The notes under the pieces were generated by a model. The model was not told the origin of the DNA. It did no database searches and saw nothing but the letters and a program-made list of their open reading frames with translations. A program made the position numbers and the translations under genes. A DNA stretch of 64,000 bases, from the NCBI GenBank assembly GCA_030690165.1, contig JAUYHF010000014.1:34257-98256 (forward strand). The letters are read 5' to 3'. Origin of the DNA: Deltaproteobacteria bacterium. GTDB lineage: Bacteria; Desulfobacterota; GWC2-55-46; UBA9637. Every line of letters starts with the position of its first letter. Within the stretch, counting starts at the first letter, position 1. This document shows, one piece after another, positions 9,062 through 34,733 of the stretch.

Positions 9062-9520
9062 TCAGGCTGCCTCCTTTCTCTGCTTAATGCCCCTGCTTAC
9101 TACCACTGGGGCAGGCTCTGTAGGGACATGTTTTGAAAAATATATCGCAGCTAAAAGTGTAGTTATTATTATTATGCTAAAACCTATAATAAGCCCCACA
9201 GGGTCAGCGAGATTTTTTGAAACCAGTATGCCTATGATAAAAATGGTTGCAATAAACCTTATATAATACCTTGTTATAACAAACCGCTGTGCATTGTCAG
9301 GCTTGAATAAAAAACCGCTTTTTACAGTCCGCGCCAATATAGAGAGATTTGCCATGCCAATGACAGTTCCGATAATAACACTTAAAACCATAAAAGTTGA
9401 GCTAACAATCGCAGTAATAATAAAGGCAATCGCAGAGATAATTAAATTTGCCCTTCCCACCTTTACAAACAGAGGATGAAGTATATCAAAATTAATCTGC
9501 TGAATGGCGTTAGTAACCAT
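9062..9520 (-). CDS. atpI: Putative ATP synthase protein I (AtpI-like membrane protein)
   Basis: 152-aa four-helix hydrophobic protein immediately upstream of atpB in the operon. Confidence 0.4.
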
Positions 9521-9725
9521 ACTTCTTTATCAATGTATAGATATTTCTAAATCCTGCTACTATACCAATTATCAGGAATATTATTGTAAACCACGGGTCG
9601 GTAGAAAATACCCTGTCTAAATAAACACCTATATAGAGCCCTACAAAGGTGGCAACCACCATGGATATGCCAAGGGAGGACAGCCATGTCACCTTTTTAA
9701 GGAAGCCCTCATTCTTTTCTTCCAT
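9510..9725 (-). CDS. atpZ: AtpZ-family small membrane protein (putative F0F1-ATPase-associated subunit)
   Basis: 71 aa, two TM helices, with the motif ...GVYLDRVFSTDPWFTIIFLIIGIVAGFRNIY typical of the AtpZ family. First gene of the atp gene run. Confidence 0.5.
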   Translation of the reverse strand: MEEKNEGFLKKVTWLSSLGISMVVATFVGLYIGVYLDRVFSTDPWFTIIFLIIGIVAGFRNIYTLIKKYGY

Positions 9726-9820
9726 GTCTTCCTAAAAAAGAAGTTACTTCTAACATGGATTAAAATTTAAGTCAATATTTTTTATTCCCTTTTCCCCTGG
9801 CAATAAACAGTTCAATATCC

Positions 9821-9907
9821 TGGTGCCGGAGGGGGGAATCGAACCCCCATGAGGTTGCCCTCGCGGGATTTTGAGTCCCGTGCGTCTACCAATTTCACCA
9901 CTCCGGC
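9821..9907 (-). tRNA. tRNA-Leu (anticodon CAA), type II with long variable arm, CCA encoded
   Basis: Reverse complement is GCCGGAGTGGTGAAATTGGTAGACGCACGGGACTCAAAATCCCGCGAGGGCAACCTCATGGGGGTTCGATTCCCCCTCCGGCACCA. The acceptor stem, D-loop, anticodon loop CTCAAAA and T-arm GGTTCGATTCC are all recognisable. Confidence 0.85.
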
Positions 9908-10027
9908 ATATTTGTTTTTAAACCTAACATAAGGATATTTTATCTGTCAAGGATAAATCATTTATAGGGTTACAAATTTATAAAATTTGGCAATGCAAAA
10001 ATTTGGTTAAAATCTGTTAAATTTCTC

Positions 10028-10056
10028 TTGACAAACTTTTAGAGCAGGACTATAGT
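10028..10056 (+). promoter_or_regulatory. Sigma70-type promoter of the mraZ/dcw operon
   Basis: TTGACA (10028-10033), a 17-nt spacer, then TATAGT (10051-10056). Located ~85 nt upstream of the mraZ start. Confidence 0.6.
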
Positions 10057-10064
10057 TTATGCCA

Positions 10065-10093
10065 AGTGGGATAAAGTGGAATAAAGTGGAATA
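10065..10093 (+). promoter_or_regulatory. Putative MraZ operator: three 10-bp-phased direct repeats (AAGTGGGAT / AAAGTGGAAT / AAAGTGGAAT)
   Basis: Direct repeats with a GTGG core at 10-bp phasing, immediately downstream of the -10. This matches the known MraZ-box architecture (phased GTGG-containing repeats). Confidence 0.5.
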
Positions 10094-10140
10094 TCACCAC
10101 ACCAAGGATTTTGGTGGGGGGGAAAGAAAGGGGATAGACT

Positions 10141-10584
10141 GTGCTTAGAGGGAGATTCGAACACACCATTGACCCAAAGGGAAGAATTAGTATTCCGTCT
10201 AAATTCAGGGATGTCCTGCTGGATAAATATGATGAAAGACTTGTTCTTACTAACCATTATGACGGATGTCTTGTAGCATATCCATTTATCGAATGGCAGA
10301 TTGTAGAAGATAAGGCCAGTAAACTTCCTACGTTAAAAAAAGAGACTGCAGATTTTTTAAGGTTCTTTATCTCCGGCGCAACTGAGTGCTCTATAGATAA
10401 GCTCGGTAGAATACTTGTGCCGCCTGTACTGAGGGAGCATGCAAAACTGGAAAAGGATATTGTCCTTGTCGGAACGCTTATGAAGATTGAAATCTGGGCG
10501 AAGGCAAGATGGAAGTCAATAATAGCGAGGGCAGAGGAGAATATTGATGAAGCCAGAGAGGTTCTTTCAGGGCTGGGGCTTTAA
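10141..10584 (+). CDS. mraZ: Transcriptional regulator MraZ
   Basis: GTG start; the product begins MLRGRFEHTIDPKGRISIPSKFR and is a duplicated MraZ domain (...LGRILVPPVLRE...). First gene of the dcw cluster. Confidence 0.85.
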   Translation: MLRGRFEHTIDPKGRISIPSKFRDVLLDKYDERLVLTNHYDGCLVAYPFIEWQIVEDKASKLPTLKKETADFLRFFISGATECSIDKLGRILVPPVLREHAKLEKDIVLVGTLMKIEIWAKARWKSIIARAEENIDEAREVLSGLGL

Positions 10585-11520
10585 ATGGTATTCAGGCATT
10601 TGCCGGTTATGCCGGAGGAGGTTGTAAAATTTCTTGCGTGCAAACATGGAAGGATATATGTGGATGGGACGGTTGGAGGAGGCGGCCATACCAGTTCGAT
10701 ATTAAATGCCAGTATGCCCGCAGGCAAGGTTATAGGAATGGATTGGGATGAAGATGCAATTCAGGCAGCAATGGAAAGGTTTAAGGATTATTCAGAACGT
10801 TTGACTCTGGTCAGAGAAAATTTTGCTGATATAAAAAAGGTGATGGGAGATTTAAACATAAAAGAGGTTGATGGGATTTTATTAGACCTCGGTGTATCTT
10901 CATATCATATTGAAAGACCTGACAGAGGGTTTAGTTTCAGGTTTGATGCGCCGCTGGATATGAGGATGGATAAAAGGCAAAAAACGACTGCGTATAACAT
11001 TGTAAATGAACTTTCTATGAAAGAGTTGGAAAAGATTATCCGGGAGTATGGGGAAGAGAGATGGGCAAAGAGGATTGCTGGGGACATTGTTGAAAAAAGA
11101 CGGCACGGGCCTATATCCACCACAAAAGAACTTTCCAACCTCGTATCTTTCGCCATACCAAAGAAGTTTCATCCAAGAGATATCCATCCCGCCACACGGA
11201 CATTTCAGGCAATAAGGATTGCTGTAAATGACGAACTAAACAATTTAAAAAAAGCCGTTGATGACGGGGTAGGCCTTCTGGGACTAGGGGGAAGGATGGT
11301 TGTTATCTCTTTTCATTCACTTGAGGACAGGATTGTAAAAGAGTCTTTTAGAAAACTTGCGAAGGGCTGCGTATGCCCCAATGATTTTCCAAAGTGCGTT
11401 TGCGGTCAAAAACCCAAATTGCATATTATAACTAAAAGGCCTGTTGCTCCGTCGCTGGAAGAGATTCTAATCAACCCAAGGGCAAGGAGCGCCAAGCTCA
11501 GGGCGGCGGAGAGGGTATAG
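10585..11520 (+). CDS. rsmH: 16S rRNA (cytosine1402-N4)-methyltransferase RsmH (MraW)
   Basis: SAM-binding YVDGTVGGGGHT and DLGVSSYHIE motifs. Follows mraZ. Confidence 0.85.
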   Translation: MVFRHLPVMPEEVVKFLACKHGRIYVDGTVGGGGHTSSILNASMPAGKVIGMDWDEDAIQAAMERFKDYSERLTLVRENFADIKKVMGDLNIKEVDGILLDLGVSSYHIERPDRGFSFRFDAPLDMRMDKRQKTTAYNIVNELSMKELEKIIREYGEERWAKRIAGDIVEKRRHGPISTTKELSNLVSFAIPKKFHPRDIHPATRTFQAIRIAVNDELNNLKKAVDDGVGLLGLGGRMVVISFHSLEDRIVKESFRKLAKGCVCPNDFPKCVCGQKPKLHIITKRPVAPSLEEILINPRARSAKLRAAERV

Positions 11521-11856
11521 ATGTCTAACTTAGCGGCAAAAGGCATATTTTCTGCCAGGGTTATAGCAGGGCAAATGGTTAAACAAAAAGTTGCCGGCTC
11601 GCTGTTTGCAGCTTTTAAGGTAATTATAGTTATCCTCTTCTTTACACTCTTTTACCTCTGGAGCAGGCTTCTGGTTGTAAGCCTTGGTTATGAAATAGCA
11701 AAAGCAAATAAAGAAAGAGTTGAGTTTATGGCTGAGAACAAGAGGCTTAAGTTCGAATCCCTTTCATTAAAATCTCCCCAGAGAATAGAGGTCATTGCAT
11801 CAGATAAGCTTGGCCTTGTCTATGCAAAAGGGGAGCAGATAATAACGGTAAAATGA
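11521..11856 (+). CDS. ftsL: Cell division protein FtsL-like (single-TM septum-formation protein)
   Basis: 111 aa, one TM helix then a coiled-coil. Canonical position between rsmH and ftsI. Confidence 0.55.
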   Translation: MSNLAAKGIFSARVIAGQMVKQKVAGSLFAAFKVIIVILFFTLFYLWSRLLVVSLGYEIAKANKERVEFMAENKRLKFESLSLKSPQRIEVIASDKLGLVYAKGEQIITVK

Positions 11857-13799
11857 AAGAAGCTATCCCATGGTTAAGATTTCGTGTTATTACAATTTTT
11901 TTATTATTTGTTTTTATATTTATAGTAATTTTTATTAAGGCCTTTCAGCTTCAGGTTTTAGAGCGGAGTAAGCTTAAGGCCAGGGCGGATGATCAACATT
12001 TAAAGACAATGAATATCATTCCCATAAGGGGAACCCTCTATGACAGGGGGATGCGTGAACTTGCTGTCAGTATGGAGGTTGATTCAGTTTATGCGCAGCC
12101 CGGCAGGATTGATAATATTAAAAAAACGGCAAGTCTTCTCGCCGCCGCCCTTTCTATGGATAAAAGAGAGCTAGAAGCTAAATTTACATCCGGGAAATCA
12201 TTTGTATGGATCAAAAGACAACTGGATTTTATTAAGGCTGAAGAGGTAAAGGGATTGAATATACGAGGCGTAGGTTTTATTAAAGAGGGAAAGAGGTTTT
12301 ACCCCACCCCCCACATTGCCAGTCACCTTATTGGCTTTGTTGGATTAGATTCTAAAGGTCTTGAAGGCATTGAATTAGGTTATGATGAATATATGGCAGG
12401 AGCCTCCGCCCGCTTCATAGGAGAAAGGGACGCCCTTGGCAACGAGATTTTATTCCGCAATTCGGATAAAGAGGCATATAGGGGTAAAGATTTAATTCTT
12501 ACTATAGATAAGACTATTCAGTATATAGCTGAAAAGGAGCTTCTTAAAGTTGTTTCAAGCGCCAATGCAAAAGGCGGCATGGTTATAGTAATGGCCCCGA
12601 GGACAGGAGAGATACTTGCTATAGCCAACTCGCCGCAGTTTAATCCTGATATCTTTTTTGAATATAATAACCCCAATATCTGGCGCAACAGGGCTATTAC
12701 AGATACATTTGAACCAGGTTCAACATTCAAGGCCTTTCTGCTCGCTGCCCTTTTTGAAGAAGGGGCAGCCAGGTCTGACGACCTATTTTTTTGTGAGAAT
12801 GGCAATTATGTCGTAGCTGACAGGACATTTCATGATGTTAAAAAATTTGGCTGGCTCTCCCTTGCCCAGATAATCAAATACTCCAGCAATATCGGCGCTG
12901 CCAAGGCAGGAGACAGACTGGGAAAGGAAAGGATGCATAGATATATAAAGGATTTTGGGTTCGGGGACAGAACAGGCATAGGCCTCCCCGGGGAGGCGCT
13001 CGGCTCTGTGCCTCCTTTAAAACAGTGGTCAAAGGTGTCCCTTGGCAATATATCCTTTGGCCAGGGCATATCCGCAACAGGGATACAGCTTTTATCCGCA
13101 TTTTCTGCAATTGCAAATAAGGGCTATCTTATGAAGCCGTATGTTGTAAAGAAAATAGTAAATGGAAAGGGCGATGTTATTGAAGAAATCAGGCCGTCAG
13201 TGGTGAGAAGGGTTATATCTGAAGAAACTGCAAACAGGGTAACCGGTATTCTGAAAACGGTAACTGAAAAAGACGGCACCGGCGCAAAGGCAGCAGTAGC
13301 TGGTTTTGAGGTTGCCGGCAAGACAGGCACCGCGCAGAAACCTGATCTCTCTCAAGGGGGTTACACAGCGGATAAATATGTAAGTTCATTTATAGGATTT
13401 GTTCCTGCAGATAATCCGGAGCTTGCTATATTGGTTGCGGTTGATGAACCCGCTATCGGATTTTATGGAGGGCAGATTGCCGCCCCTGTTTTTAAGGAGA
13501 TTGCCTCTCAGAGCCTTTCTTATCTCGGAATATTTTCAAAGAGCCGCAGCGCCAATCCGGATAAGCAGCCAGATAGATTATTGTATGTCGTGCAAAATAC
13601 CGATTCTTCAGATGAAGAAGGAGAAGACCTTTTTCACATGCCTGATTTAAGAGACAAGACAATGCGGTCTGTCCTTAGATTAGCAAGGGAAATTCCTCTT
13701 GATATAAAGATTTCAGGGAGCGGAAAAGCTGTGTATCAGAAGCCGTTGCCAGGAGAAAGAATTACTCAGGGTGAATTGGCAGAGGTGAGGTTCAGATGA
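11853..13799 (+). CDS. ftsI: Penicillin-binding protein (FtsI/PBP2B-like transpeptidase) with C-terminal PASTA-like domain
   Basis: Active-site motifs STFK (FEPGSTFKAF), SSN (KYSSNIGA) and KTGT (AGKTGTAQ). Confidence 0.85.
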   Translation: MKEAIPWLRFRVITIFLLFVFIFIVIFIKAFQLQVLERSKLKARADDQHLKTMNIIPIRGTLYDRGMRELAVSMEVDSVYAQPGRIDNIKKTASLLAAALSMDKRELEAKFTSGKSFVWIKRQLDFIKAEEVKGLNIRGVGFIKEGKRFYPTPHIASHLIGFVGLDSKGLEGIELGYDEYMAGASARFIGERDALGNEILFRNSDKEAYRGKDLILTIDKTIQYIAEKELLKVVSSANAKGGMVIVMAPRTGEILAIANSPQFNPDIFFEYNNPNIWRNRAITDTFEPGSTFKAFLLAALFEEGAARSDDLFFCENGNYVVADRTFHDVKKFGWLSLAQIIKYSSNIGAAKAGDRLGKERMHRYIKDFGFGDRTGIGLPGEALGSVPPLKQWSKVSLGNISFGQGISATGIQLLSAFSAIANKGYLMKPYVVKKIVNGKGDVIEEIRPSVVRRVISEETANRVTGILKTVTEKDGTGAKAAVAGFEVAGKTGTAQKPDLSQGGYTADKYVSSFIGFVPADNPELAILVAVDEPAIGFYGGQIAAPVFKEIASQSLSYLGIFSKSRSANPDKQPDRLLYVVQNTDSSDEEGEDLFHMPDLRDKTMRSVLRLAREIPLDIKISGSGKAVYQKPLPGERITQGELAEVRFR

Positions 13800-15331
13800 A
13801 GATAAAAGAATTGATAAAAAATCTTCCAGGTAGTCATGTTATCGGCAATGCCGATATACCTGTCCGTGGCATTACCTATGATTCGAGGCAGGTGAACAGG
13901 GATTTTATTTTCGCTGCTGTCAAAGGGCAGCATCTTGACGGCCGTGCCTTTGTCAAGGATGCATTGGCGCGGGGGGCTTCTGCTGTTATCCTGGAAGAGG
14001 CTTTTGGGGACCTCAATGCAGTCCAGATAATAGTGCCTGATGCAAGGGAGGCGATGGCAAGTGTGGCCGCGGCATTTTATGGAGAGCCTTGCAGAAACAT
14101 GACCCTTATTGGCGTAACAGGGACAAATGGAAAGACAACCATAACATACCTTGTAGAGTCAATATTGAGGACTGCCGGTTTCAATGCCGGGGTTGTGGGC
14201 ACGATTAACTACCGCTATAAGGATAAAATTTTTAATGCGCCGCATACAACACCAGAGGCGCCTGACCTTCAAAGGATTTTCAGAGCAATGTTAGACAGCG
14301 GTGTGACTCATTGCGTTATGGAGGTTTCTTCTCACAGCCTTGCGCAAAAAAGGGTTTTTGGCTCAAGGATTGTTGGCGGGGTATTTACAAATCTTACTCA
14401 GGACCACCTTGATTACCACAAGACAATGGAGGAGTATTTTGAAAGCAAGTCCATGTTATTTACTGATTTTGTGGCCAGAGAAAGGGATGGTTTTGCAGTA
14501 ATAAACACAGACGACCCATGGGGAAAGAGATTGTTAAATTGCAAATTGCAAATTGCAAATTGCAAATTTATCAGATACAGCCTTAAACAGGATGCGGAGA
14601 TTTATCCTGTTAAAGTTTCGTTTTCCGAAAGAGGCATAGAGGCCATGCTTGATACACCTATTGGCTCTGTAAAGATTTCTTCGGCGCTTTTGGGCGAATA
14701 TAATCTGCAAAATATTATGGCAGCGGTCGGTGTTGGCATCGGCCTTGCGCTGGATAAAAAGACTATAGAAAAAGGTATTGCTGCTCTAAAAAGAGTTCCA
14801 GGCAGGCTTGAAAGAATTATTTCGGAAGACGGTTTCCAGGCCGTAGTTGATTATGCCCATACAGGAGATGCATTGGAGAGGGTGATTGTCGCATTAAAGC
14901 CGCTTGCGAAGAAGAGGCTTATCACTGTATTCGGCTGCGGCGGCGACAGGGACAGGGGCAAAAGGCCTGTGATGGGAGAAATTGCAGCAAGGCTGAGCGA
15001 TTTCACGGTAATCACATCAGATAATCCGAGAAGCGAAGATCCGATGGAGATTATAAAAGAGATTGAGGCGGGAATAAAAGGTTGTCCAAAGATACTGGAT
15101 TTTAAATCCGAAATTACTCATGGTTATAGAACCATACCTGACAGGCATGAGGCAATAATGGCCGCTGTAAATCTTGCGGCTGCGGGCGATATTATCCTTG
15201 TTGCCGGCAAGGGGCATGAGGATTACCAGATAATCGGCGACAGGAATATTCCCTTTGAGGATACAAAGGAGATAAAGGCTGCAATGGAGGTTAAATACAG
15301 AAGTCAGAAGTCGGTAGTCAGTAGTCAGTAG
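13796..15331 (+). CDS. murE: UDP-N-acetylmuramoyl-L-alanyl-D-glutamate--2,6-diaminopimelate ligase MurE
   Basis: P-loop GVTGTNGKTT and Mur ligase middle/C-terminal domains (DYAHTGDALE). Carries an in-frame TTGCAAA-repeat insert and a repeat-derived C-terminal tail. Confidence 0.85.
   Translation: MKIKELIKNLPGSHVIGNADIPVRGITYDSRQVNRDFIFAAVKGQHLDGRAFVKDALARGASAVILEEAFGDLNAVQIIVPDAREAMASVAAAFYGEPCRNMTLIGVTGTNGKTTITYLVESILRTAGFNAGVVGTINYRYKDKIFNAPHTTPEAPDLQRIFRAMLDSGVTHCVMEVSSHSLAQKRVFGSRIVGGVFTNLTQDHLDYHKTMEEYFESKSMLFTDFVARERDGFAVINTDDPWGKRLLNCKLQIANCKFIRYSLKQDAEIYPVKVSFSERGIEAMLDTPIGSVKISSALLGEYNLQNIMAAVGVGIGLALDKKTIEKGIAALKRVPGRLERIISEDGFQAVVDYAHTGDALERVIVALKPLAKKRLITVFGCGGDRDRGKRPVMGEIAARLSDFTVITSDNPRSEDPMEIIKEIEAGIKGCPKILDFKSEITHGYRTIPDRHEAIMAAVNLAAAGDIILVAGKGHEDYQIIGDRNIPFEDTKEIKAAMEVKYRSQKSVVSSQ
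14535..14569. repeat. Tandem TTGCAAA heptamer array inserted in-frame in murE (encodes LNCKLQIANCKF)
   Basis: aaattgcaaattgcaaattgcaaattgcaaattta, five units, a multiple of 3 nt. Confidence 0.7.
15298..15331. repeat. Heptamer tract (AGTCAG-type) forming the murE C-terminal tail and stop
   Basis: cagaagtcagaagtcggtagtcagtagtcagtag encodes ...RSQKSVVSSQ*. Confidence 0.55.
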
Positions 15332-19299: not shown

Positions 19300-20399
19300 T
19301 TAAAGTTAGAGAAATAGATAAATCCCTTATCCTTGCTATGATGGCCCTTGTGGCAATAGGCTTTACTATGGTCTATTCCACCACCTACATAATGGCTATG
19401 AAACGGTATGGCAGTGAATATTTCTTTGTAAAAAAACATCTCATATTCAGCGTCTTAGGTTCTCTGTTGTTTTTTGTTGCCGCGAATATAGAGTATCATT
19501 TGTATAGAAGGCGGGCATACTTAATATTTTTTGCAAGCCTTATCTCGCTCATTCTTCTCACATTCATCCCAAGCCTTGGAAATGAGATGGGAGGCGCAAA
19601 AAGATGGATAAGGCTCGGCCCTTTGACTTTTCAGCCCTCTGAGCCTGCCAAACTGGCCCTTATTATATACCTGTCATATTATCTTGCGGCAAAAAAGGAT
19701 AAGATAAAAACCTTTTCCCTTGGCATTGTCCCGCCGATGATAATGAGCGGGCTTATTATACTTTTCATCTTAAAAGAGCCGGATTTCGGAACAGCTTTAT
19801 CTCTTGGCGTAATTACAATTATCATGATGTTCATTGCAGGTGTAAGATTAAGATACCTTTTTTCCATACTTCTTCTTTCAATGCCATTTATTTATCTTAT
19901 GGTTACGAAAGTCGACTATAGAATGAAACGGGTGCTTGTGTTTTTAGATCCATGGAGGGATTCAGGAGGCGCAGGGTTCCAGCTTGTGCAGTCGTTTATT
20001 GCCTTTGGCGCAGGCGGCATCTGGGGTGTCGGCCTTGGCGAGGGGAAGCAGAAACTGTTTTATCTGCCGGAGGCCCATACCGACTTTATCCTTTCTGTGG
20101 TAGGAGAAGAGCTTGGGCTTATAGGGGTTTCTGCGCTCATCATGCTTTATCTGATTGTACTTATCTCAGGCATAAGGATTAGCTTAAAGGCAAAAGACCT
20201 TTTTGGCAAATACCTTGCCGTAGGCATTACCCTCTTAATTGTGCTTCATGCAGCAGTAAATATGGCTGTGGTACTGGCCCTTTTGCCTACAAAAGGACTT
20301 ACCCTTCCGTTTATAAGCTATGGCGGAACATCCCTTGTGGTAAATATGATAGGGATGGGGATACTGTTGAATATATATAAAACAGGAGTCAGGGAGTGA
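19296..20399 (+). CDS. ftsW: Peptidoglycan glycosyltransferase FtsW (SEDS family)
   Basis: 367-aa 10-TM SEDS protein (...FIAFGAGGIWGVGLGEGKQK...PTKGLTLPFISYGG). Confidence 0.85.
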   Translation: MIKVREIDKSLILAMMALVAIGFTMVYSTTYIMAMKRYGSEYFFVKKHLIFSVLGSLLFFVAANIEYHLYRRRAYLIFFASLISLILLTFIPSLGNEMGGAKRWIRLGPLTFQPSEPAKLALIIYLSYYLAAKKDKIKTFSLGIVPPMIMSGLIILFILKEPDFGTALSLGVITIIMMFIAGVRLRYLFSILLLSMPFIYLMVTKVDYRMKRVLVFLDPWRDSGGAGFQLVQSFIAFGAGGIWGVGLGEGKQKLFYLPEAHTDFILSVVGEELGLIGVSALIMLYLIVLISGIRISLKAKDLFGKYLAVGITLLIVLHAAVNMAVVLALLPTKGLTLPFISYGGTSLVVNMIGMGILLNIYKTGVRE

Positions 20400-21532
20400 A
20401 AGGCATGCCTTTCACGGATTTTAGGTTGAGAATTGTATTAACAGGAGGAGGCACCGGCGGGCATCTGTTTCCTGCCCTTGCGCTGGCAGAAGAATTTAAG
20501 GCAAGGGATAAAGATTGCGAGATCCTATTTATAGGAAGCGCTGCGGGCATAGAAAAGGATGTTGTTCCAAAATATGGTTATGCTTTAGAATTTGTGGATG
20601 TAGAAGGCCTTAAAGGAAAAGGGATATATAATAAAGTATCGGCAGGCTTAAAGGCAGCAAAGGCAGTTTTTGCCGCAAAGAAGATTCTTAAGCCATTCAG
20701 ACCGGATGGTGTCATAGGTACGGGTGGTTATTCTTCTGGTCCGGTTGTTTTGGCAGCAAGGCTTTTGGGGATAAAGACAGCTATCCTTGAACAGAATACG
20801 ATGCCAGGTTTAACCAATAGGCTTCTGGGAAGGTTTGTAGACAGGATATATGTGGCATTTGAACAAACCAAAAAAAAAATTCCAGGCGGGAGGGTAATCC
20901 TGGCAGGAAATCCGGTGAGAAAGGAGATTCTGGAAATTGCAAATTGCAAACATGTCCCTGCAAGTATTAAGCAGGGATTGCAAATTGCAAATTGCAAATT
21001 CACAATTCTCATCTTCGGCGGAAGCCAGGGGGCAAAGGCAATAAATACGGCATTTTTAGATGCGCTGGAATATCTCGCTGATATAAGAGACAGCATCAGG
21101 ATTATTCATCAGACAGGGGATGCGGATTACATAACAGTAAAAGAGACTTACGAAAGAAAAGGGATTAAGGCCGATGTCTATAGGTTTATAGATGATATGG
21201 CTCATGCATACTCTCAGGCAGACATGGTGATATGCAGGGCAGGGGCTACATCCATTGCCGAGATAACCGCTCTGGGGATTGCCTCTATACTCATACCATA
21301 TCCATTTGCAGCTAATAACCATCAGGAAATAAATGCAAGATGTTTAGCTGATAAAGGGGCTGCAATCATGATGAGGCAAGGCGAGATTATAGGAGATGCG
21401 ATGGCGGTTCTTATTGAGAGATTTTATAAAAACCCTGATGAATTAAAAAAGATAAGAGAAAATGCAAAAGCTCTGGGAAGGCCGAATGCGGCAAAGGAGA
21501 TAGTGGACAACATTCTACAAATGTTGAATTGA
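20396..21532 (+). CDS. murG: UDP-N-acetylglucosamine--N-acetylmuramyl-(pentapeptide) pyrophosphoryl-undecaprenol GlcNAc transferase MurG
   Basis: N-terminal GGGTGGHLFPALA glycine loop and a GT-B C-terminal domain. Contains a 66-bp in-frame composite repeat insertion. Confidence 0.85.
   Translation: MKGMPFTDFRLRIVLTGGGTGGHLFPALALAEEFKARDKDCEILFIGSAAGIEKDVVPKYGYALEFVDVEGLKGKGIYNKVSAGLKAAKAVFAAKKILKPFRPDGVIGTGGYSSGPVVLAARLLGIKTAILEQNTMPGLTNRLLGRFVDRIYVAFEQTKKKIPGGRVILAGNPVRKEILEIANCKHVPASIKQGLQIANCKFTILIFGGSQGAKAINTAFLDALEYLADIRDSIRIIHQTGDADYITVKETYERKGIKADVYRFIDDMAHAYSQADMVICRAGATSIAEITALGIASILIPYPFAANNHQEINARCLADKGAAIMMRQGEIIGDAMAVLIERFYKNPDELKKIRENAKALGRPNAAKEIVDNILQMLN
20935..21000. repeat. 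Composite in-frame insertion in murG: TTGCAAA units flanking a 25-nt hairpin (gtccctgcaagtattaagcagggat)
   Basis: 66 bp, equal to 22 codons (IANCKHVPASIKQGLQIANCKF). The same 25-mer hairpin recurs in non-coding DNA at 28493-28519. Confidence 0.7.
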
Positions 21533-27205: not shown

Positions 27206-28372
27206 ATGATTGAATTAGCCGATAGTTTTAACAAAGGGGCAAAGATTAAGGTCATAGGAGTCGGAGGATGCGGCGGCAATGCCATCAATACAATGATAGA
27301 ATGTCAGCTTGAGGGGGTGGAATTTCTGACTGCCAATACAGACGCCCAGGCCCTCGGCCTATCAAAGGCGCCTGTAAAGATTCAATTAGGTGAAAATCTG
27401 ACAAAAGGCCTTGGCGCAGGGGCAAACCCTGAGATAGGCAGAAACTCAGCCATAGAAAGCAGAGACAGGCTCATGGAGGCATTAGCTGGGGCTGATATGG
27501 TCTTTATCACGGCAGGCATGGGCGGCGGCACAGGCACAGGCGGCGCGCCCATTGTGGCAGAAGTGGCTAAAGAGGTTGGCGCCCTCGTAGTTGCAGTTGT
27601 AACAAAACCATTTACCTTTGAGGGAAAGAAGAAGATGAGACAGTCAGATGAAGGGCTAAAGGCGCTCAAGGGGGCGGTAGACACTGTTATAACCATTCCG
27701 AATCAGAGGCTCTTGTCCATCGCAGAGAAGACCACTCCCCTTCCCAATGCGTTTAAAAAGGCGGACGAGATATTGTATCAGGCTGTAAAGGGAATATCGG
27801 ATGTTATAACAATCCACGGGCTTGTAAATGTGGACTTTGCCGACGTCAGAACCATAATGAGTGAGATGGGGCTTGCGCTTATGGGTTCAGGCGTTGCCCG
27901 CGGGGATAACAGAGCGGTGGAGGCTGCAAGAAAGGCCATATCCAGCCCGCTTTTGGAGGATATCTCCATTAATGGGGCAAAGGGCGTGCTTATAAACATC
28001 ACCGGCTCATCTGACATAACCCTGCATGAGGTAAATGAGGCCTCAATGCTTATTCAGGAAGAGGCGCACGAGGATGCCCATATTATCTTCGGCGCAGTAA
28101 TTGATGAAAAGATGGGTGAAGAGGTCAGGGTTACTGTCATTGCCACAGGTTTTGGGAAAGAAGAGGGCAAAAGGGTATCGCCTATAAAATACATCGCGCC
28201 GGCTGTTATTGTCGGCGACATGGATATCCCAACTATTATCAGAAGAGAGAAACAAAAAAAATTAGAGGTGGGAACAGCGGAGGTTCAAAGGCTCAGGCCC
28301 CTTGGCGGTTTCAATGTCATTGACGAGGACGCCTACGATACACCGACATTTTTGAGAAAGCAGGCGGATTAA
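27206..28372 (+). CDS. ftsZ: Cell division GTPase FtsZ
   Basis: Tubulin signature GGGTGTG ([19 protein letters not shown]), T7 loop NVDFADV, and the conserved C-terminal peptide [11 protein letters not shown]. Confidence 0.95.
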
Positions 28373-28492
28373 GCAGCTCACGCTGCACTCAACATATTGT
28401 AGTTGCCCAATTCATTGGGCGCATTTTGTAACTCAAGGCTTTAGCCTTGAAAACTCAAACCTGAAGGTTTGAGTTACAAACGCCGATAAACT

Positions 28493-28519
28493 TGTCCCTG
28501 CAAGTATTAAGCAGGGATC
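28493..28519. repeat. Second copy of the 25-nt hairpin gtccctgcaagtattaagcagggat (non-coding copy)
   Basis: Identical to the segment embedded in murG at 20950-20975. Stem tccctgc/gcaggga, loop aagtattaa. Confidence 0.7.
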
Positions 28520-28771
28520 GGCAAGCTACAATGGCCTTGCATCTGAGCAATTTTTGAGCGTAAACTGGATTAAGGCAATTTGAATCTGATATTACAGTTG
28601 CGCCACACCCTCACCCAAACCCTTCATGGGACTATTTTGTGTAGTTTTGTCTGCCTTGGTAATCCTATCCGCCAAATTGCCATTTCATAAAACCCTTGAT
28701 TCTCAAAGTATTTTAGCATATGCTTAATTTAATATTGGGACAATAATGTTGATGTAAATATAAAATAAGGA

Positions 28772-29002
28772 GTGTGTGCTATGGGAACAATCAATGATGA
28801 ATTTGCGGCAAAGATTAAATCTTTGCCGGACAGTGAAAAGATAGAACTGGTAGATTCTATTTTGATGCAGCTTGACAAACCTGACCCTGAGATTGACCGC
28901 ATTTGGGCAGATGAGGCGCGAAAACGTTGGCAGGCATACAAGTCGGGGAAAATAGAAACAGTAAGCTATGAGCAGGTAATGGATAAATATCGCACCAGAT
29001 GA
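28772..29002 (+). CDS. Putative addiction-module antitoxin (small helical protein)
   Basis: 76 aa with a 4-nt overlap onto a downstream RelE/ParE-like toxin. Composition typical of the 'putative addiction module component' family. Confidence 0.5.
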   Translation: MCAMGTINDEFAAKIKSLPDSEKIELVDSILMQLDKPDPEIDRIWADEARKRWQAYKSGKIETVSYEQVMDKYRTR

Positions 29003-29310
29003 AAGTCCGTTTTTTAAAACCCGCGCAATCTGAGGTTGATGATGCTGTTGCATGGTATAATTTCCAATCGCGCGGTTTGGGAATGCAATTTTTAGATGAT
29101 ATTGACCGTGCAATCAGAAGAATAGCGTCATACCCTCTCTCAAATGTGGAAATAGAACAAGGGCTTCGCCGCTGTCTGCTTTCACGATTTTCCTATGGAA
29201 TCATTTACGGCATTGACTCAGAAACAATTATTGTTGTTGCGGTAGCGCATTTGCATAGGGAACCGCGATATTGGATTGACAGGATAGTTGGTCAAAAACA
29301 AGAAGAGTGA
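28999..29310 (+). CDS. Type II toxin, RelE/ParE superfamily
   Basis: 103 aa with C-terminal conserved R/H residues (AVAHLHREPRYW). Operonic with the upstream small ORF. Confidence 0.55.
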   Translation: MKVRFLKPAQSEVDDAVAWYNFQSRGLGMQFLDDIDRAIRRIASYPLSNVEIEQGLRRCLLSRFSYGIIYGIDSETIIVVAVAHLHREPRYWIDRIVGQKQEE

Positions 29311-29620
29311 ATTACCCGCCAGCAAAATGATGCCTTATTATACTCAGGGCAATACAGATATTCTGAAACTGCATAAAACCGACTTCCTCTGTTTTCGCAA
29401 ATGCCCTGCTGATATAGTTCTCAAATCCTATGACCGGGCGATTGAGGATTATAACAAGATAATCCAGTTAGACCCAAATGCTACTCAAGCCTACTACCAT
29501 CGTGGCTTGCTTATGAGAGATTAGGGAATAAGAGCATGGCAATTTCTGATTTCAAAAAGGCATGTGATTTGGGGCTTGAAGTTGGGTGCGAGAATTTGCA
29601 GAGGGTTTTAAGGCAGAAGT
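29288..29620 (+). pseudogene. Disrupted TPR-repeat protein gene (stop/frameshift between two TPR-like segments)
   Basis: ...AIEDYNKIIQLDPNATQAYYHRGLLMRD* is followed in another frame by ...AISDFKKACDLGLEVGCENLQRVL. These are two halves of a typical short TPR protein. Confidence 0.4.
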
Positions 29621-29702
29621 AATGAGAAAATAAACATTAGATGAGTCGTTGTGCGTCTATATTGGTTGTAATGGTTTTCTTAATTAAATAAAGAGCTATC
29701 TT

Positions 29703-31181
29703 ATGGCTATCGTCAAATCAGAAGGTTTGACACCTACTGAAAGACTGCTATCAGGTCTTTGTGAGCGCTCATTCCTAAAGCTATGGAGTTATCCCAATCC
29801 ATTTAAAGATGACCGGGATGAACTCTGTGATCTCCTCGCTGTTTTTGAAAATCACGTATTCATATTTTTTGATCGAGAGAATCTATCACTCGGTAAAGAA
29901 AAGAATGATCCGGTGGTTAATTGGAACCGTTGGAAAAGAGAGGTGATTGATGCTCAAACTCGCACTGCACACGGCGCTGAAAAATACATTGAAAGCGGGC
30001 GCGGCATTTTTTTAGATAAAGATTTAACGGTTCCATATCCTATCGCTATAGATCGCAAGAAAATGATTGTGCACAATATCATAATCGCGCATGGAGCGAA
30101 AGAGGCTTGTGAAAAATTCTCTGATGATAACGTATACGGTAGCCTGGCAGTTTTATATGGAAACAGCGGGTCTAATCTTCCTTTCCCGTTCTTGATACAT
30201 ATAGACAAAGAAAAGCCTGTCCATGTATTCGATAGTCATAACCTTCCTATAATTTTTAGTGAGCTAGATACCTTCTTTGATTTCTCGTCATATCTTGACG
30301 CAAAGATAGATGCGATTAAATCGCACGATGCATTGTTTTATTGTGGTGAAGAAGATTTACTTGCTAACTACTTCCTAAACTTTGACAAATCAAAGAAGAA
30401 GCACTTCATCGGGACATCGAAAAAAGATGTCAATTTTCTGATGATTGGTGAAGGAGGATGGAAAAACTTCATTGAGCGAGAAATTTACAAAAATAAAAAA
30501 TCGGCTGACAAAATATCATATCTTTGGGATGAATTAATCCAAAGAACTTGCCAGAACACCCTTGACGGCACCTTGCTTGGAAACTCCACGCCACTAAGAG
30601 GACAGAGTGCGATCCATGAAATGGCTAAAGAGCCACGCTTCAGCCGCCGTGCTTTATCTGAACACATAATTCAAGCAATTCGCAACTTTCCTGAGTCCGC
30701 GCAGCCAATAATGCGATATTTGTCTTTTATGCCCTCATTTTACAATGAAAAGGGTTATGTTTTTTTGCAACTGAAATTTGATAGGATTACTGACTATGAA
30801 AGTGACTACCGGCCAAAGCGGCAAGCAATGCTTGAAATCGCCTGTGGCGCAGCAAAAAATAAGTTTGAGCATCTGAAGACAGTTATTGGCATTGCTATCG
30901 ATGCCCCCAAATATACAAAGAGGAACTCTGAAGACTTTATTTTGATGGATTGCACTCATTGGCCTGATGACCGCCGAGAAGATTATGAAAAGGCAAATGA
31001 GGGTCTCGGCTTCTTTAAATCTGACACTCTTACCATGCAGAAGAAAACCGTACAGAATTTCCCATCTTTGAAAAAAGAATCTAAAAGTTTAGGGCGTATA
31101 AAGGTTGGCCGCAATGCACTTTGTCCATGCGGCTCCGGCAAAAAATATAAAAAATGCTGCATTGATGTTGGAGCTAAATGA
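29703..31181 (+). CDS. Uncharacterized 492-aa protein with a C-terminal SEC-C zinc-binding motif (CPCGSGKKYKKCC) and no recognisable N-terminal domain
   Basis: Long ORF whose terminal SEC-C motif (the SecA C-terminal Zn-ribbon type) is clear. The first ~440 aa match nothing I recognise. Confidence 0.6.
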   Translation: MAIVKSEGLTPTERLLSGLCERSFLKLWSYPNPFKDDRDELCDLLAVFENHVFIFFDRENLSLGKEKNDPVVNWNRWKREVIDAQTRTAHGAEKYIESGRGIFLDKDLTVPYPIAIDRKKMIVHNIIIAHGAKEACEKFSDDNVYGSLAVLYGNSGSNLPFPFLIHIDKEKPVHVFDSHNLPIIFSELDTFFDFSSYLDAKIDAIKSHDALFYCGEEDLLANYFLNFDKSKKKHFIGTSKKDVNFLMIGEGGWKNFIEREIYKNKKSADKISYLWDELIQRTCQNTLDGTLLGNSTPLRGQSAIHEMAKEPRFSRRALSEHIIQAIRNFPESAQPIMRYLSFMPSFYNEKGYVFLQLKFDRITDYESDYRPKRQAMLEIACGAAKNKFEHLKTVIGIAIDAPKYTKRNSEDFILMDCTHWPDDRREDYEKANEGLGFFKSDTLTMQKKTVQNFPSLKKESKSLGRIKVGRNALCPCGSGKKYKKCCIDVGAK

Positions 31182-31227
31182 AAAACTGTACAACAAATCA
31201 CTTCAGCGGACTGGAATATAAGGGATA

Positions 31228-31922
31228 ATGGGGCGTCGCTCAAAACAAAGCCGGAGAAGATACGGATTGAGGGTCATTCCCCATATCTTTATTGAAGACG
31301 ATTTGAATCATCAGAAACAACAGCAGCACCTTATTTATAAACAGACGAGCCTCTTGCGAAACTGTCTGTCATCCCCGAATGCTTCTATCGGGGATATGGT
31401 TTTTCAAGCGATTAGAAACAGATTCTCGCTCAGAAGCTATGCAGGAATGACAGAATTGGGACTTTTGCAAGAACCTCAGGCATTAGACGGTTTAATCAAC
31501 GCCATTTTGGCAAATATTTATGGGGTAACTACAAAGCGGCTTAATGAACAAGTAAAAAAAACCGAGAACGTTTCCCGGAAGATTTTATGTTTCAATTAAC
31601 GAAAGAAGAAAAAGATGAGGTGGTCGCAAATTGCGACCACCTTAAAAAGCTTAAATATTCTCCTGTTCTGCCAAATGCATTTACAGAACACGGGGCAATT
31701 ATGATTGCCACTATTTTAAATAGTCCTGTTGCTGTTCAGGCGAGCATCCATGTTGTAAGGGCATTTGTCAAACTCCGACAGATACTTGCCTCTAACAAAG
31801 AACTTTCTAAACGGTTTGATGAACTCGAAAAGAAATATGACACCCAGTTTAAGGTGGTCTTTGATGCCATCCGTCAATTGATGACTCCACCAGAACCGAA
31901 AAGGAGAAAGATAGGCTTTTGA
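31228..31922 (+). pseudogene. ORF6N (KilA-N-like) domain protein gene split by a frameshift at a poly-A run (31551-31559)
   Basis: The two ORFs 31228-31599 and 31587-31922 together align to the intact paralog at 49044-49556 (...LASLYGVKTSQLTRQVRR...FPDDFMFHLTGEE.../...QFKIVFDAIKQLLELPEKSKKRIGF). Confidence 0.65.
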
Positions 31923-32341
31923 AAAAAGAGAAAGGAACTATGGCTTTAAAATCGGTACTGTCTGCGTGCAAACATGCACAGGCAGATGAATCTAAGGGTA
32001 AAGAGAGCCGGCCACCTATTTGCAAACAGCTACATACGGCTTAATCAACGCCCTTCGGGTTTTTGAAAAGAAAAAACATTAAATGGTGTGCGGCTGTTGC
32101 AACAGGGGGCATAGCATCAGGCAAAACCTTGTTGTTGAATGAGGAGGGACAGGAAATAAAAATGTTAGGGGTAAAACAAGAAGTTATAAAGACGATTCAG
32201 TCCCTTCCAGTTGAAAAGCGGATGTCCAAACGGCTCTCAAAATAAAGTGGTTCCCATTTTTCTATATCCTTCAATATATCTTCTTTACCAATAACTCCAA
32301 AAGTTAGATATAATAGCCTTTATACAGTAAGGAGGCCGCTT

Positions 32342-34078
32342 ATTTCCTGGCAACTTAAAAAAAAGGCAAAAGAACTTCTCTTAAAAGAGCAGGGAACCGT
32401 TTATAAGGAATGGGGCGGCAAGGTAAGCGTATGCCTTGTATATCCCAACTCATATTTCCTTGGGATGAGTAATCTTGGTTTTCAGGCAATCTATCATCTT
32501 TTAAACAGCCTTGATTATGTTGTGTGCGAAAGGGCATTTCTGCCTGATGACAAAGATATAGCAGAGTTTGAGAGAACCAGCACATCTCTTTTTTCATTAG
32601 AATCACAAAGACCCATTGCCGAATTTGACATTATTGCCTTTTCCATATCATTCGAAGAAGATTATCTTAATATCCTTAAAATCTTTGACCTTGCCAAAAT
32701 ACCTTTTTTATCATCTGCACGAAAAAGCGCACAACCATTGATTATGGCGGGCGGTGTTGCTGTATCTTTAAATCCTGAACCAATTGCGGATTTTTTTGAC
32801 ATATTTGCCATTGGCGAGGGCGAGGAATTTGTCGCGGAGTTTATAGATACCTTCAAAATAGCACAACTTAAAGCAAAGACAAAAGATGGGCTTCTTGAGG
32901 CGCTCGTTCCGGTAGAAGGTGTTTATATACCAAGCTTCTACAAGATTGTGTATCAGGGAAATTTCATAAAAGAGTTTACCCCTGTCAAAGGTTCTCCGGC
33001 AAAGGTAAAAAGCAGAAAAGTAAAAAGGCTTGATGCCTTTCCAGCGCCTTCTTCGCATATTCTTACAAAGGAAACGAACTTTAGCAACACCTATCTGGTT
33101 GAGGTAGAGCGGGGCTGCGGAAGGGGGTGCAGGTTCTGCGCAGCAGGTTTTGTTTATCTGCCGCCGCGGGAAAGGGAGCTAAACGGCTTAAAACAAGGGG
33201 TTTTAAATGGGATGGGGCTAACCCAAAAGGTTGGCTTGGTGGGTGCGGCTGTGTCTGAGTATTCAGACTTAAAGGCACTTTGCACAACAGTTATAGAAAA
33301 TAACGGCGAGATTACGCTCTCTTCTTTAAGGCTGGATGTTCTTGATGAAGAGCTCCTCAAACTTTTGAAAGAGGGCGGTTATAAGACTATTACCATAGCG
33401 CCGGAGGCTGGTTCAGAGAGATTAAGGGATGTCATAAATAAAAGTTTTTCTGAAAAGGACATTATAGAAGCTATAAACCTCATATCAGCATCAGGCATAC
33501 AAAAATTAAAACTCTATTTTATTATAGGCCTTCCAACAGAGACCCTTGATGATATAAATGCCATTACTGAGCTTACCTTACGGATAAAGTCTGCAATGCA
33601 AGGCGGGCTGATTACACTAAGTATTAATCCATTTATACCAAAGCCTATTACTCCGTTTCAGTGGTGCGCTTATGAGGATATAAAATCTTTAAAAAATAAA
33701 ATGGGTATAATTAAAAATGGGCTAAAAAATGAAAAAGGGATAAAAATTACTTCCCTTTCACTACGAGAGGGATATATCCAGACCCTTTTGTCTGTAGGAG
33801 ACAGGAGGATAGGTAAAATATTAGTTGATGCGTATAAAAACGGCTGGAAGGCTGCATTAAAAGGAGCAAAGTTTGATGCAGATTTCTATGTCGGAAGTAT
33901 ATGGAATATTTCTGAAGTACTCCCGTGGGATTTTATAGATACAGGGCTTAAAAAGGAATATCTTTGGAAGGAATACGGGTGTGCATTAAAAGGCAGGACA
34001 ACCCCGCCATGCCGGGGCACCCAAGCGGAACTTGGGTCGGGAAGATGTGTTAGATGCGGGGTGTGTTTTGAAAGATGA
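32342..34078 (+). CDS. B12-binding-domain radical SAM protein (uncharacterized radical SAM family). 5' end uncertain: no in-frame ATG upstream of 32465.
   Basis: CxxxCxxC motif VEVERGCGRGCRFCAAGF. The N-terminal B12-binding-like region extends upstream of the first ATG (in-frame ...KELLLKEQGTVYKEWGGKVSVCLVYPNSYFLG...). An AAGGAGG RBS sits at 32329-32335. The frame is open back to 32240. Confidence 0.7.
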   Translation: MSWQLKKKAKELLLKEQGTVYKEWGGKVSVCLVYPNSYFLGMSNLGFQAIYHLLNSLDYVVCERAFLPDDKDIAEFERTSTSLFSLESQRPIAEFDIIAFSISFEEDYLNILKIFDLAKIPFLSSARKSAQPLIMAGGVAVSLNPEPIADFFDIFAIGEGEEFVAEFIDTFKIAQLKAKTKDGLLEALVPVEGVYIPSFYKIVYQGNFIKEFTPVKGSPAKVKSRKVKRLDAFPAPSSHILTKETNFSNTYLVEVERGCGRGCRFCAAGFVYLPPRERELNGLKQGVLNGMGLTQKVGLVGAAVSEYSDLKALCTTVIENNGEITLSSLRLDVLDEELLKLLKEGGYKTITIAPEAGSERLRDVINKSFSEKDIIEAINLISASGIQKLKLYFIIGLPTETLDDINAITELTLRIKSAMQGGLITLSINPFIPKPITPFQWCAYEDIKSLKNKMGIIKNGLKNEKGIKITSLSLREGYIQTLLSVGDRRIGKILVDAYKNGWKAALKGAKFDADFYVGSIWNISEVLPWDFIDTGLKKEYLWKEYGCALKGRTTPPCRGTQAELGSGRCVRCGVCFER

Positions 34079-34136: not shown

Positions 34137-34733
34137 ATGGGACTTAAAGAAGATCTGGATATACTTGATGTAAAGATAAACAAGCTTAAAGTAGACTATG
34201 AGCAGTATTTTGCAAAAGTTCTGAAAAAAGAACCCGCTGTCTTAAGAAATGAGATAGACCGTATTATTTTAAAATACAGCAACCAGCCTACCACCAACAC
34301 ATCCTTGAAATTCAGATATTCAACCCTTACCGCCAAATACACCTCTTACAAACAATTCTGGAACAGGATACTCCGGCGGATTGAGGATGGAAACTATGAG
34401 AGAGGCGCCGGATTTGGGGTAATATCACCTGCAGCGGCGGCAAATAGAGAACCCATGCAAGGGCCAGGAGCAACCCCAGCTTCTTCAGAAGGGCTCAAGA
34501 AAGAAATGCCGGACAGCGATAGCAGATTCAAGACTGTCTATCAGCAATTTATGGATGCGAAAAAAAGCTGTCAGGATACATCGGGGGATATGTCTTATGA
34601 AAAATTCACACAGGCCATTATTCAGCAGACAGAAAAGGTAAAAAAGGATATGAAATGTAGTGATGTGGAGTATAAGGTTGTTGTGAAAGATGGGAAGACC
34701 AAGATAACCCTTATACCGATAAGCAAGAAATAA
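34137..34733 (+). CDS. Hypothetical protein (198 aa)
   Basis: Intact ORF with an N-terminal coiled-coil-like region. No recognisable motif. Confidence 0.35.
   Translation: MGLKEDLDILDVKINKLKVDYEQYFAKVLKKEPAVLRNEIDRIILKYSNQPTTNTSLKFRYSTLTAKYTSYKQFWNRILRRIEDGNYERGAGFGVISPAAAANREPMQGPGATPASSEGLKKEMPDSDSRFKTVYQQFMDAKKSCQDTSGDMSYEKFTQAIIQQTEKVKKDMKCSDVEYKVVVKDGKTKITLIPISKK

Follow-up and report, generated by a model that had tools for sequence, protein, structure and literature searches.

The segment described here lies within a 64,000-nucleotide stretch of a Deltaproteobacteria bacterium genome (GenBank contig JAUYHF010000014.1), which is referred to as the window; coordinates are positions in the window unless another contig is named. 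It occupies about 4 kb between ftsZ and a gene for a B12-binding radical S-adenosylmethionine (SAM) protein, and its central gene (29703–31181) encodes a protein of 492 residues that ends in a SEC-C zinc ribbon. A first-pass annotation, made from the letters of the sequence without database searches, had listed the contents of the segment, and this inventory was confirmed. The dcw cluster closes with ftsZ, and it is followed by a structured non-coding region, a small antitoxin gene with a RelE/ParE toxin gene (28772–29310, PF09720 and PF05016, both above cut-offs), a broken TPR gene whose C-terminal piece lies in another frame, the gene for the 492-residue protein, an ORF6N gene split at a poly-A run, and two small open reading frames (ORFs). 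The features are collected in Table 1.

The slot between ftsZ and the radical SAM gene

A first scan with FtsZ, against JGI metagenomes, returned solely relatives of at most 63% identity, and a search of protein databases then gave relatives of 86–98% identity. The radical SAM gene directly follows ftsZ in L091, L094, L099, L103, L142, L175 and L176. The two genes are separated by only 60–230 bp in the distant relatives (FtsZ identity 57–63%). In L175 and L176 (86–87%), the radical SAM gene begins about 520 bp after ftsZ and the slot is empty, with the island missing. In L171–L173 (97%), the gap and the toxin-antitoxin (TA) pair are common with the window, matching 28480–29041 and 29173–29329, and the cargo of L171 beyond the TA pair is different and 4.4 kb long. 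This cargo includes a 316-residue ORF overlapping a type II DNA methyltransferase gene (PADLOC E-value 1e-44), a DUF1016/PDC-S02 remnant and an RluA-type pseudouridine synthase gene. The 316-residue ORF gave no family match and probably encodes a new restriction enzyme. In L174 (98%), the gap is common with the window up to 28691 and is followed by a third, different pair of small genes.

Homology between the window and its relatives runs past the end of ftsZ up to 28385 and, for L171, L175 and L176, picks up again at 32251–32284, just 5' of the radical SAM gene. Since relatives either lack the segment or carry other cargo in its place, the 4 kb that follow ftsZ were inserted into a recombination hotspot whose contents vary from strain to strain. 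The low conservation noted in the first-pass annotation was thus borne out, and gene order at this site is not conserved among close relatives. Conserved flanks enclosing different defence or TA cargo in close relatives are the features of a defence hotspot, and both are present here. The G+C fraction is 0.37–0.43 across the segment, compared with 0.48–0.52 in ftsZ. No direct or inverted repeats bracketing the island were detected and no integrase gene was found in it; an att-flanked, integrase-type element is unsupported, since the bracketing repeats are missing.

The comparison with relatives also resolves three layers within the segment: an ancestral hairpin-rich gap, an older TA insertion, and cargo specific to the window at 29330–32272, with the left breakpoint at 29329/29330 and the right end at 32272. 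The island is therefore a layered mosaic rather than a single element, and the TA pair predates the SEC-C cargo. Under this scheme the slot would now hold an older, intact ParE-type TA pair, debris left by previous occupants (the TPR fragment and the ORF6N/PDC-S05 gene with its frameshift) and a single-gene cassette that is intact and was acquired recently. Known defence hotspots between core genes likewise have two conserved anchors and cargo that differs in near-identical strains. The ftsZ slot differs from them in being very small (3–5 kb), in lying directly 3' of the dcw operon, and in having no detected integrase or flanking repeats.

Table 1. Features of the segment between ftsZ and the radical SAM gene and of the encoded 492-residue protein.
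Feature	Coordinates (strand)	Evidence and remarks
ftsZ, last dcw gene, left anchor of the hotspot	27206–28372 (+)	ORF; 97–98% identical to P0271 and P0272
Hairpin-rich non-coding gap, partly ancestral	28373–28771 (+)	399 nt, no ORF
Antitoxin, Unstab_antitox/TIGR02574	28781–29002 (+)	PF09720 59.9 bits, E-value 2.4e-16; TIGR02574 37.6 bits
ParE/RelE toxin, intact	28999–29310 (+)	PF05016 31.8 bits, cut-off 23
Broken TPR gene	29288–29622 (+)	Fragment 29288–29524; C-terminal piece in other frame 29536–29622; TPR_11 E-value 1e-6
SEC-C gene leader	29646–29702 (+)	Similarity to L009 starts at about 29646
Residues 1–260, alpha/beta domain; likely NERD-like PD-(D/E)xK core at about 10–130	29703–30482 (+)	AlphaFold 2 model, Foldseek
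Residues 261–455, helical linker and C-terminal alpha/beta domain	30483–31067 (+)	Full-length AlphaFold 2 model
Residues 470–486, SEC-C/SecA-type zinc ribbon, CPCGSGKKYKKCC	31110–31160 (+)	PF02810
ORF6N remnant (KilA-N-related; PADLOC candidate PDC-S05)	31228–31922 (+)	PF10543 on both halves
Two small ORFs	31919–32044 and 32063–32245 (+), part of 31919–32272	No match in the libraries scanned
TIGR03960-type B12-binding radical SAM gene, right anchor, ancestral downstream neighbour of ftsZ	32342–34078 (+)	

The non-coding gap folds more stably than all 100 of its shuffled versions (z = -4.6). Its hairpins comprise a terminator-like structure (28404–28421), a hairpin with 26-nt arms (28425–28480) and a dispersed palindromic element of about 30 nt (28490–28518); 28490–28541 matches L176. 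The gap is a terminator with palindromic indels. A riboswitch or small RNA is unsupported, as an Rfam scan of the gap and the island gave no family. The ORF of the antitoxin opens at a GTG codon (28772), and a 73-residue gene is called in L001; the start is likely the ATG at 28781. The toxin gene overlaps the end of the antitoxin ORF by 4 nt (28999–29002), and the pair has the composition of a type II TA system, with ParE/RelE and Unstab_antitox members on overlapping ORFs. The parE gene of L171 has a 131-bp internal deletion corresponding to 29042–29172.

The ORF6N gene is split at an A8 run (31554–31561) into ORFs 31228–31599 and 31587–31922, such that profile positions 14–35 and 44–86 fall on different ORFs and no intact ORF6N domain is encoded. 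Addition of one A to the run restores the canonical ORF6N sequence 'VKKNRERFPEDFMFQLTKEE', and the C-terminal half matches PDC-S05 with an E-value of 3.8e-30. The frameshift may represent a true pseudogene, a sequencing or assembly error, or phase variation by slippage. The sole other copy (Logan contig L001) shows 100% identity and probably derives from the same sample, so that the two copies do not distinguish these alternatives.

Several further observations concern the slot and its surroundings. A 60-bp stretch of the L171 slot (12175–12235, within 9289–14290 of that contig) is common to 31262–31321 of the window and is possibly a recombination scar. The gene pair of L174 (3409–3625 of that contig) consists of a 65-residue ORF overlapped by an ORF that begins VYIVTD and, as far as the contig extends, resembles a VapB/VapC (PIN) TA pair. 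The palindrome of about 30 nt, AAAC-TGTCCCTGCAAGTATTAAGCAGGGAT, occurs twice in the window, at 28490–28518 and 20950–20978, the second being an exact copy over 20954–20978. In L174 (98%), the gap copy is missing from this spot. The second copy lies in frame inside murG (ORF 20396–21532), where it is translated as ...CKHVPASIKQGL... in a variable inter-domain linker and is flanked by ATTGCAA tandem repeats; the palindrome resembles a small mobile hairpin whose presence in an essential gene is tolerated. The reading frame of the radical SAM gene is open and conserved 5' of its first ATG (32465), in a region that contains no ATG, GTG or TTG start. An in-frame ATT (32342) lies 7 nt after an AGGAGG (32330–32335), with an A8 run at 32357–32364, which suggests that this gene uses a rare ATT start; the resulting protein would have 578 residues, compared with 571–582 in relatives. 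The following gene (34137–34733) encodes 198 residues that match only the C-terminal domain of the MXAN_5187 family (NF041621, E-value 6.5e-19), compared with 601 positions in the full model (NF041620).

Extent and spread of the SEC-C gene

Nucleotide similarity between the island and 88 loci that carry homologs is limited to about 29646–31185, which corresponds to the gene and about 55 nt upstream of it. This leader probably carries the gene's own promoter and ribosome-binding site. Clustering of all ORFs neighbouring the homologs gave no recurrent partner gene, and a two-gene system or a TA-type pairing was rejected for lack of a conserved partner. Comparison of these loci strongly supports a single-gene mobile unit.

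The protein belongs to a large family. More than 2,000 homologs were found at an E-value of 0.001 or better, of which the top 120 are 64–87% identical over the full length, and an exhaustive search, with clustering at 50% identity, gave 2,132 representatives; almost all have 450–520 residues and match from end to end. Among reference genomes, carriers include Desulfobacterota, Patescibacteria, Nitrospinaceae and Alpha-, Beta-, Gamma- and Zetaproteobacteria; additional carriers are found in Bacteroidota, Chlorobi, Acidobacteriota, Verrucomicrobia and the metagenome-assembled genome of one DPANN archaeon. Identity to the window protein is 71–81% across Desulfobacterales, Patescibacteria, Nitrospinaceae and Alphaproteobacteria. 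For the last three groups, the values of 71–73% exceed the FtsZ identity of 50–63% seen outside the close clade, which indicates recent horizontal transfer. The family is present on 142 plasmids, 92 of them conjugative. Of 5,426 complete Escherichia coli genomes, 21 carry the gene, each time on a plasmid. The mobility suggested in the first-pass annotation is therefore evident from the single-gene unit, its spread over many phyla and its plasmid carriage.

The family is not represented in Pfam or PADLOC, and no description of it was found in the searchable literature. It matches phrog_18195, a PHROG of unassigned function, over the full length of the 492-residue protein. Members are annotated only as 'SEC-C metal-binding domain-containing' or 'YecA family' proteins. 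The latter label is misleading: WP_020324153.1, the homolog on IncN plasmids, is named 'YecA family protein' in RefSeq and has only the SEC-C tail of about 20 residues in common with YecA.

Conflict and mobile genes occur in several neighbourhoods of the homologs. On IncN plasmids that bear KPC (L089/L180), the gene lies between repA and a block containing a resolvase and the EcoRII restriction-modification (R-M) system, and on pXCV183 it sits after an integrase gene. Homologs are also accompanied by McrBC, DUF4238 and helicase genes (L007), by an HNH endonuclease and a type I R-M system (a Crinalium plasmid), and by DUF4365, an ATPase pair, a (p)ppGpp synthetase and a SMEK-domain protein (Agrobacterium pAt). 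Phage integrase is the commonest Pfam family among 148 immediate neighbours, and LmuB, PD-T7-1, type I and type III R-M, Mokosh-like helicases, DUF2726 and DUF4917 occur sporadically. The association with defence proposed in the first-pass annotation is thus upheld by gene context, in which an apparent R-M pair occupies the slot of a sister strain and homologs lie near EcoRII, McrBC, Lamassu, type I and III R-M and integrase genes.

Predicted structure of the 492-residue protein

The protein is cytoplasmic. The SEC-C ribbon at residues 470–486 is its only match in Pfam, NCBIfam and PADLOC, in agreement with the first-pass annotation, in which the N-terminal 440 residues could not be placed. 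This part of the annotation held in so far as no housekeeping family was matched, including by a Foldseek search with an AlphaFold model, but residues 1–260 most likely form a NERD-like PD-(D/E)xK fold.

The model of residues 1–260 was built from 97 diverse sequences with AlphaFold 2 and has a mean predicted local distance difference test (pLDDT) score of 93.6 and a predicted template-modelling (pTM) score of 0.91; the corresponding values for the full-length model are 80 and 0.82. In the N-terminal model, the first 130 residues follow the alpha-beta-beta-beta-alpha-beta order of the restriction-endonuclease fold. The top 50 Foldseek matches in the PDB are almost solely PD-(D/E)xK nucleases (best E-value 0.07) and include Cdn1, McrC (probability 0.72, TM-score 0.52 on the target), R.BspD6I, Can2 and the R2 endonuclease, as well as HincII, RecU/PrfA, Hjc, LmuA and RecB. 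In BFVD, all named matches belong to the PD-(D/E)XK superfamily (best E-value 0.008), among them a Cas4-like protein (probability 0.89) and RecB-family exonucleases. NERD is the sole Pfam family besides SEC-C that recurs in diverse members (four of 65, best E-value 1.6e-4). The NERD alignment of P0256 (15.4 bits) spans residues 21–93 and profile positions 20–95 of 111, and coincides with the predicted core. The fold assignment, which we regard as likely, rests on consistency over two models and two structure libraries.

The putative active-site residues of the window protein are E13, E40, D43, D57 and R58. Across the 97 sequences, E13 is conserved in 96 of 96, E40 and D43 in 97 of 97, a Lys or Arg at position 58 in 97 of 97 (Arg in 50), and an acidic residue at position 57 or 59 in 93. 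The spacing E13-30-D43-14-D57 parallels that of E535-32-D567-13-E580 in the NERD domain of ZwsA, a stand-alone defence endonuclease in which E535, D567, E580 and K582 were mutagenised (2026 preprint, 10.64898/2026.04.06.716636). From the model and this conservation, we infer that the N-terminal domain is a metal-dependent nuclease.

The C-terminal half (residues 261–455) contains the conserved motifs SYxWD (272–276) and MAKEPRFxRR (307–316) and the invariant residues D276, R312, R315 and G396. Neither sequence nor structure searches gave it a significant relative: the full-length model drew no significant Foldseek match, and a search of PDB sequences with the family profile gave a single spurious match to an antitoxin (E-value 0.21). 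Alignment of the N-terminal, middle and C-terminal segments with hhalign showed no internal duplication, and the C-terminal domain is not a copy of the N-terminal one.

The SEC-C tail matches PF02810 with 38.2 bits (cut-off 20.4; E-value 1.3e-9), and its matches in the PDB are YchJ-C and SecA metal-binding domain (MBD) peptides. The preceding residues 457–467 have low confidence in the model and probably form a flexible linker. Of 96 sampled members, 51 have the tail, which is thus an accessory module. Matches to NCBIfam models (PRK10396, PRK05590 and others) are restricted to residues 457–487 and score 24–36 bits, compared with cut-offs of 140–158, and no YecA/UPF0149-type body was recognised N-terminal to the tail. 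Similarly, for the window protein and 65 diverse members alike, matches to the PADLOC models E1-E2, E2 and PDC-S12 are confined to the tail. MBDs of the SecA type bind Zn or Fe, SecB and ribosomes, according to one report (10.1101/613315), and the SEC-C modules of YchJ take part in the sensing of reactive oxygen species and redox state (PMC13377102).

Candidate functions of the family

The explanation that we favour, at slightly better than an even chance, is that the 492-residue protein is a stand-alone, nuclease-type conflict or defence effector, encoded by a mobile family and carried here in a hotspot. A conflict or defence role taken by itself, which the gene context suggests, is evenly balanced. 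The cassette would encode a metal-dependent nuclease directed against phages or plasmids. The conserved C-terminal half would most likely sense a trigger or restrain the nuclease, and the optional SEC-C ribbon, on its flexible linker, would most likely tether the protein to a cellular partner or sense metal or redox state, so that in tail-bearing members the nuclease would be localised or regulated through the ribbon. Of the elements of this explanation, the insertion in a hotspot, the mobility of the gene, the extent and spread of its family, the conserved residues and the SEC-C motif are shown, and the fold, the nuclease activity, the defence role and the roles of the C-terminal half and the tail are inferred.

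Several results weigh against this explanation. No Foldseek match of the N-terminal model reached an E-value of 0.001, each match being weak singly. The window protein has no match to Pfam NERD (PF08378), and those of family members are below the gathering score (15.4 compared with 22.1 bits). Where (D/E)-x-K would be canonical, strand 3 carries D-K/R or V-K-D/E with non-canonical spacing, and half of the family, including the window protein, has an Arg where the catalytic Lys is expected. The invariant residues H174, D193, K201, E216/E217, D276, R312 and R315 are not explained by a simple nuclease. In addition, the body of the protein has no match in PADLOC-DB v2 outside the tail, and the 492-residue family has no match in 50,697 GenBank phage genomes. 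Many homologs are surrounded by plain housekeeping or metabolic genes, and the association with conflict and mobile genes, though clear, is a qualitative one.

Alternatively, the protein may serve the mobile element that carries it, by excluding rival plasmids, countering host defences, or acting in addiction or stabilisation. The plasmid carriage (conjugative in many cases and exclusive in E. coli), the position beside the replication, resolvase and EcoRII addiction region of IncN, the adjacent integrase genes and the full-length match to phrog_18195 all agree with such a service. However, many chromosomal copies have no mobile-element genes within 8–10 kb, the gene lies outside the IncN leading region, where anti-restriction genes cluster, with ardK on the other side of repA, and a conserved antidote partner is missing. 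We consider this explanation unlikely; it overlaps with a defence effector, because defence genes borne on plasmids are common.

Somewhat less likely again is a fold that is catalytically dead or misassigned, the protein being a nucleic acid- or ligand-binding sensor or regulator that responds, for example, to redox state or metal through the SEC-C cysteines. The non-significant structural matches, the non-canonical motif with its frequent Arg and the many invariant residues outside the nuclease core would be expected of such a protein, and YchJ provides a precedent for SEC-C modules in sensing. On the other hand, the invariant E13, E40 and D43 and the basic residue 58 resemble an active metal-binding site rather than a decayed one. 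The absence of the tail from about half of the members indicates that SEC-C is not the core function, and scans with Pfam and NCBIfam detected no DNA-binding helix-turn-helix or other regulator domain.

A housekeeping or stress protein tied to the ribosome or the Sec pathway, like YecA (AscA), is very improbable: the tail, the RefSeq label and the binding of ribosomes and SecB by the MBDs of SecA and YecA point that way, but only about 20 residues are common with YecA or YchJ, the NCBIfam scores are far below cut-offs, the gene is missing from sister strains, and it is distributed patchily over phyla at high identity and carried on plasmids.

As a candidate effector, the protein is best compared with nuclease modules of known defence systems. 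The alpha-beta-beta-beta-alpha-beta core predicted for it is that of stand-alone NERD/PD-(D/E)xK effectors, of which ZwsA is an example, and of the nuclease modules in McrC, Can2/Cdn1 and LmuA. As in ZwsA-type effectors, its putative active site would have a Glu on helix 1, an Asp on strand 2 and an acidic and a basic residue at strand 3, and the gene stands alone in defence or mobile contexts. The 492-residue protein differs from them in scoring below the Pfam NERD thresholds, in having D-K/R or V-K-D/E in place of E-x-K, and in its additional invariant E40. It has a C-terminal half of 200 residues without detected relatives and a SEC-C tail that is unique among these nucleases, and it lacks the VHS, DUF647 and S4 domains of ZwsA, the CARF domain of Can2/Cdn1 and the partner ATPases of McrC (McrB) and LmuA (LmuB).

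Two further groups share the SEC-C motif. Rugutis (pUCCL633_059), a single-gene antiphage protein of a lactococcal plasmid, has SEC-C and experimentally shown activity (PMC11381338). It is likewise plasmid-borne with an otherwise unplaceable fold, but has 359 residues and, as described, an N-terminal rather than C-terminal SEC-C motif, which sets the two proteins apart by architecture. Lactococcus is not among the ten commonest genera of the plasmid matches. YecA, YchJ and the SecA tail share the C-terminal CxCxSGxKxKxCC zinc ribbon and the flexible linker preceding it with the 492-residue protein, which is without the UPF0149 domain of YecA, the NTF2-like domain of YchJ and the ATPase domain of SecA.

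A more specific form of the effector hypothesis, which must be regarded as quite improbable, is a single-protein immune system in which the NERD-like nuclease, latent at first, is anchored to the ribosome or SecB by SEC-C, the C-terminal domain senses infection, and RNA is cleaved during translation. In such translation-coupled abortive infection, the trigger might, for example, be altered translation or a phage protein as it leaves the ribosome, and the targets would be rRNA, tRNA or phage mRNA, cleaved at the site of translation. If true, such a system would occur both on clinical IncN plasmids and in environmental bacteria.

The locus is a small and clean case of a defence hotspot that directly follows the operon for cell division. 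The family found in it is also present on widespread carbapenemase-bearing IncN plasmids, and, through the enterobacterial homolog WP_020324153.1, its function can be addressed directly in E. coli. If the favoured explanation is true, a family of more than 2,000 clusters over most bacterial phyla would gain a predicted activity and a biological role, and the defence repertoire would be extended by a nuclease effector that acts alone and has an unusual tail of the SecA type.

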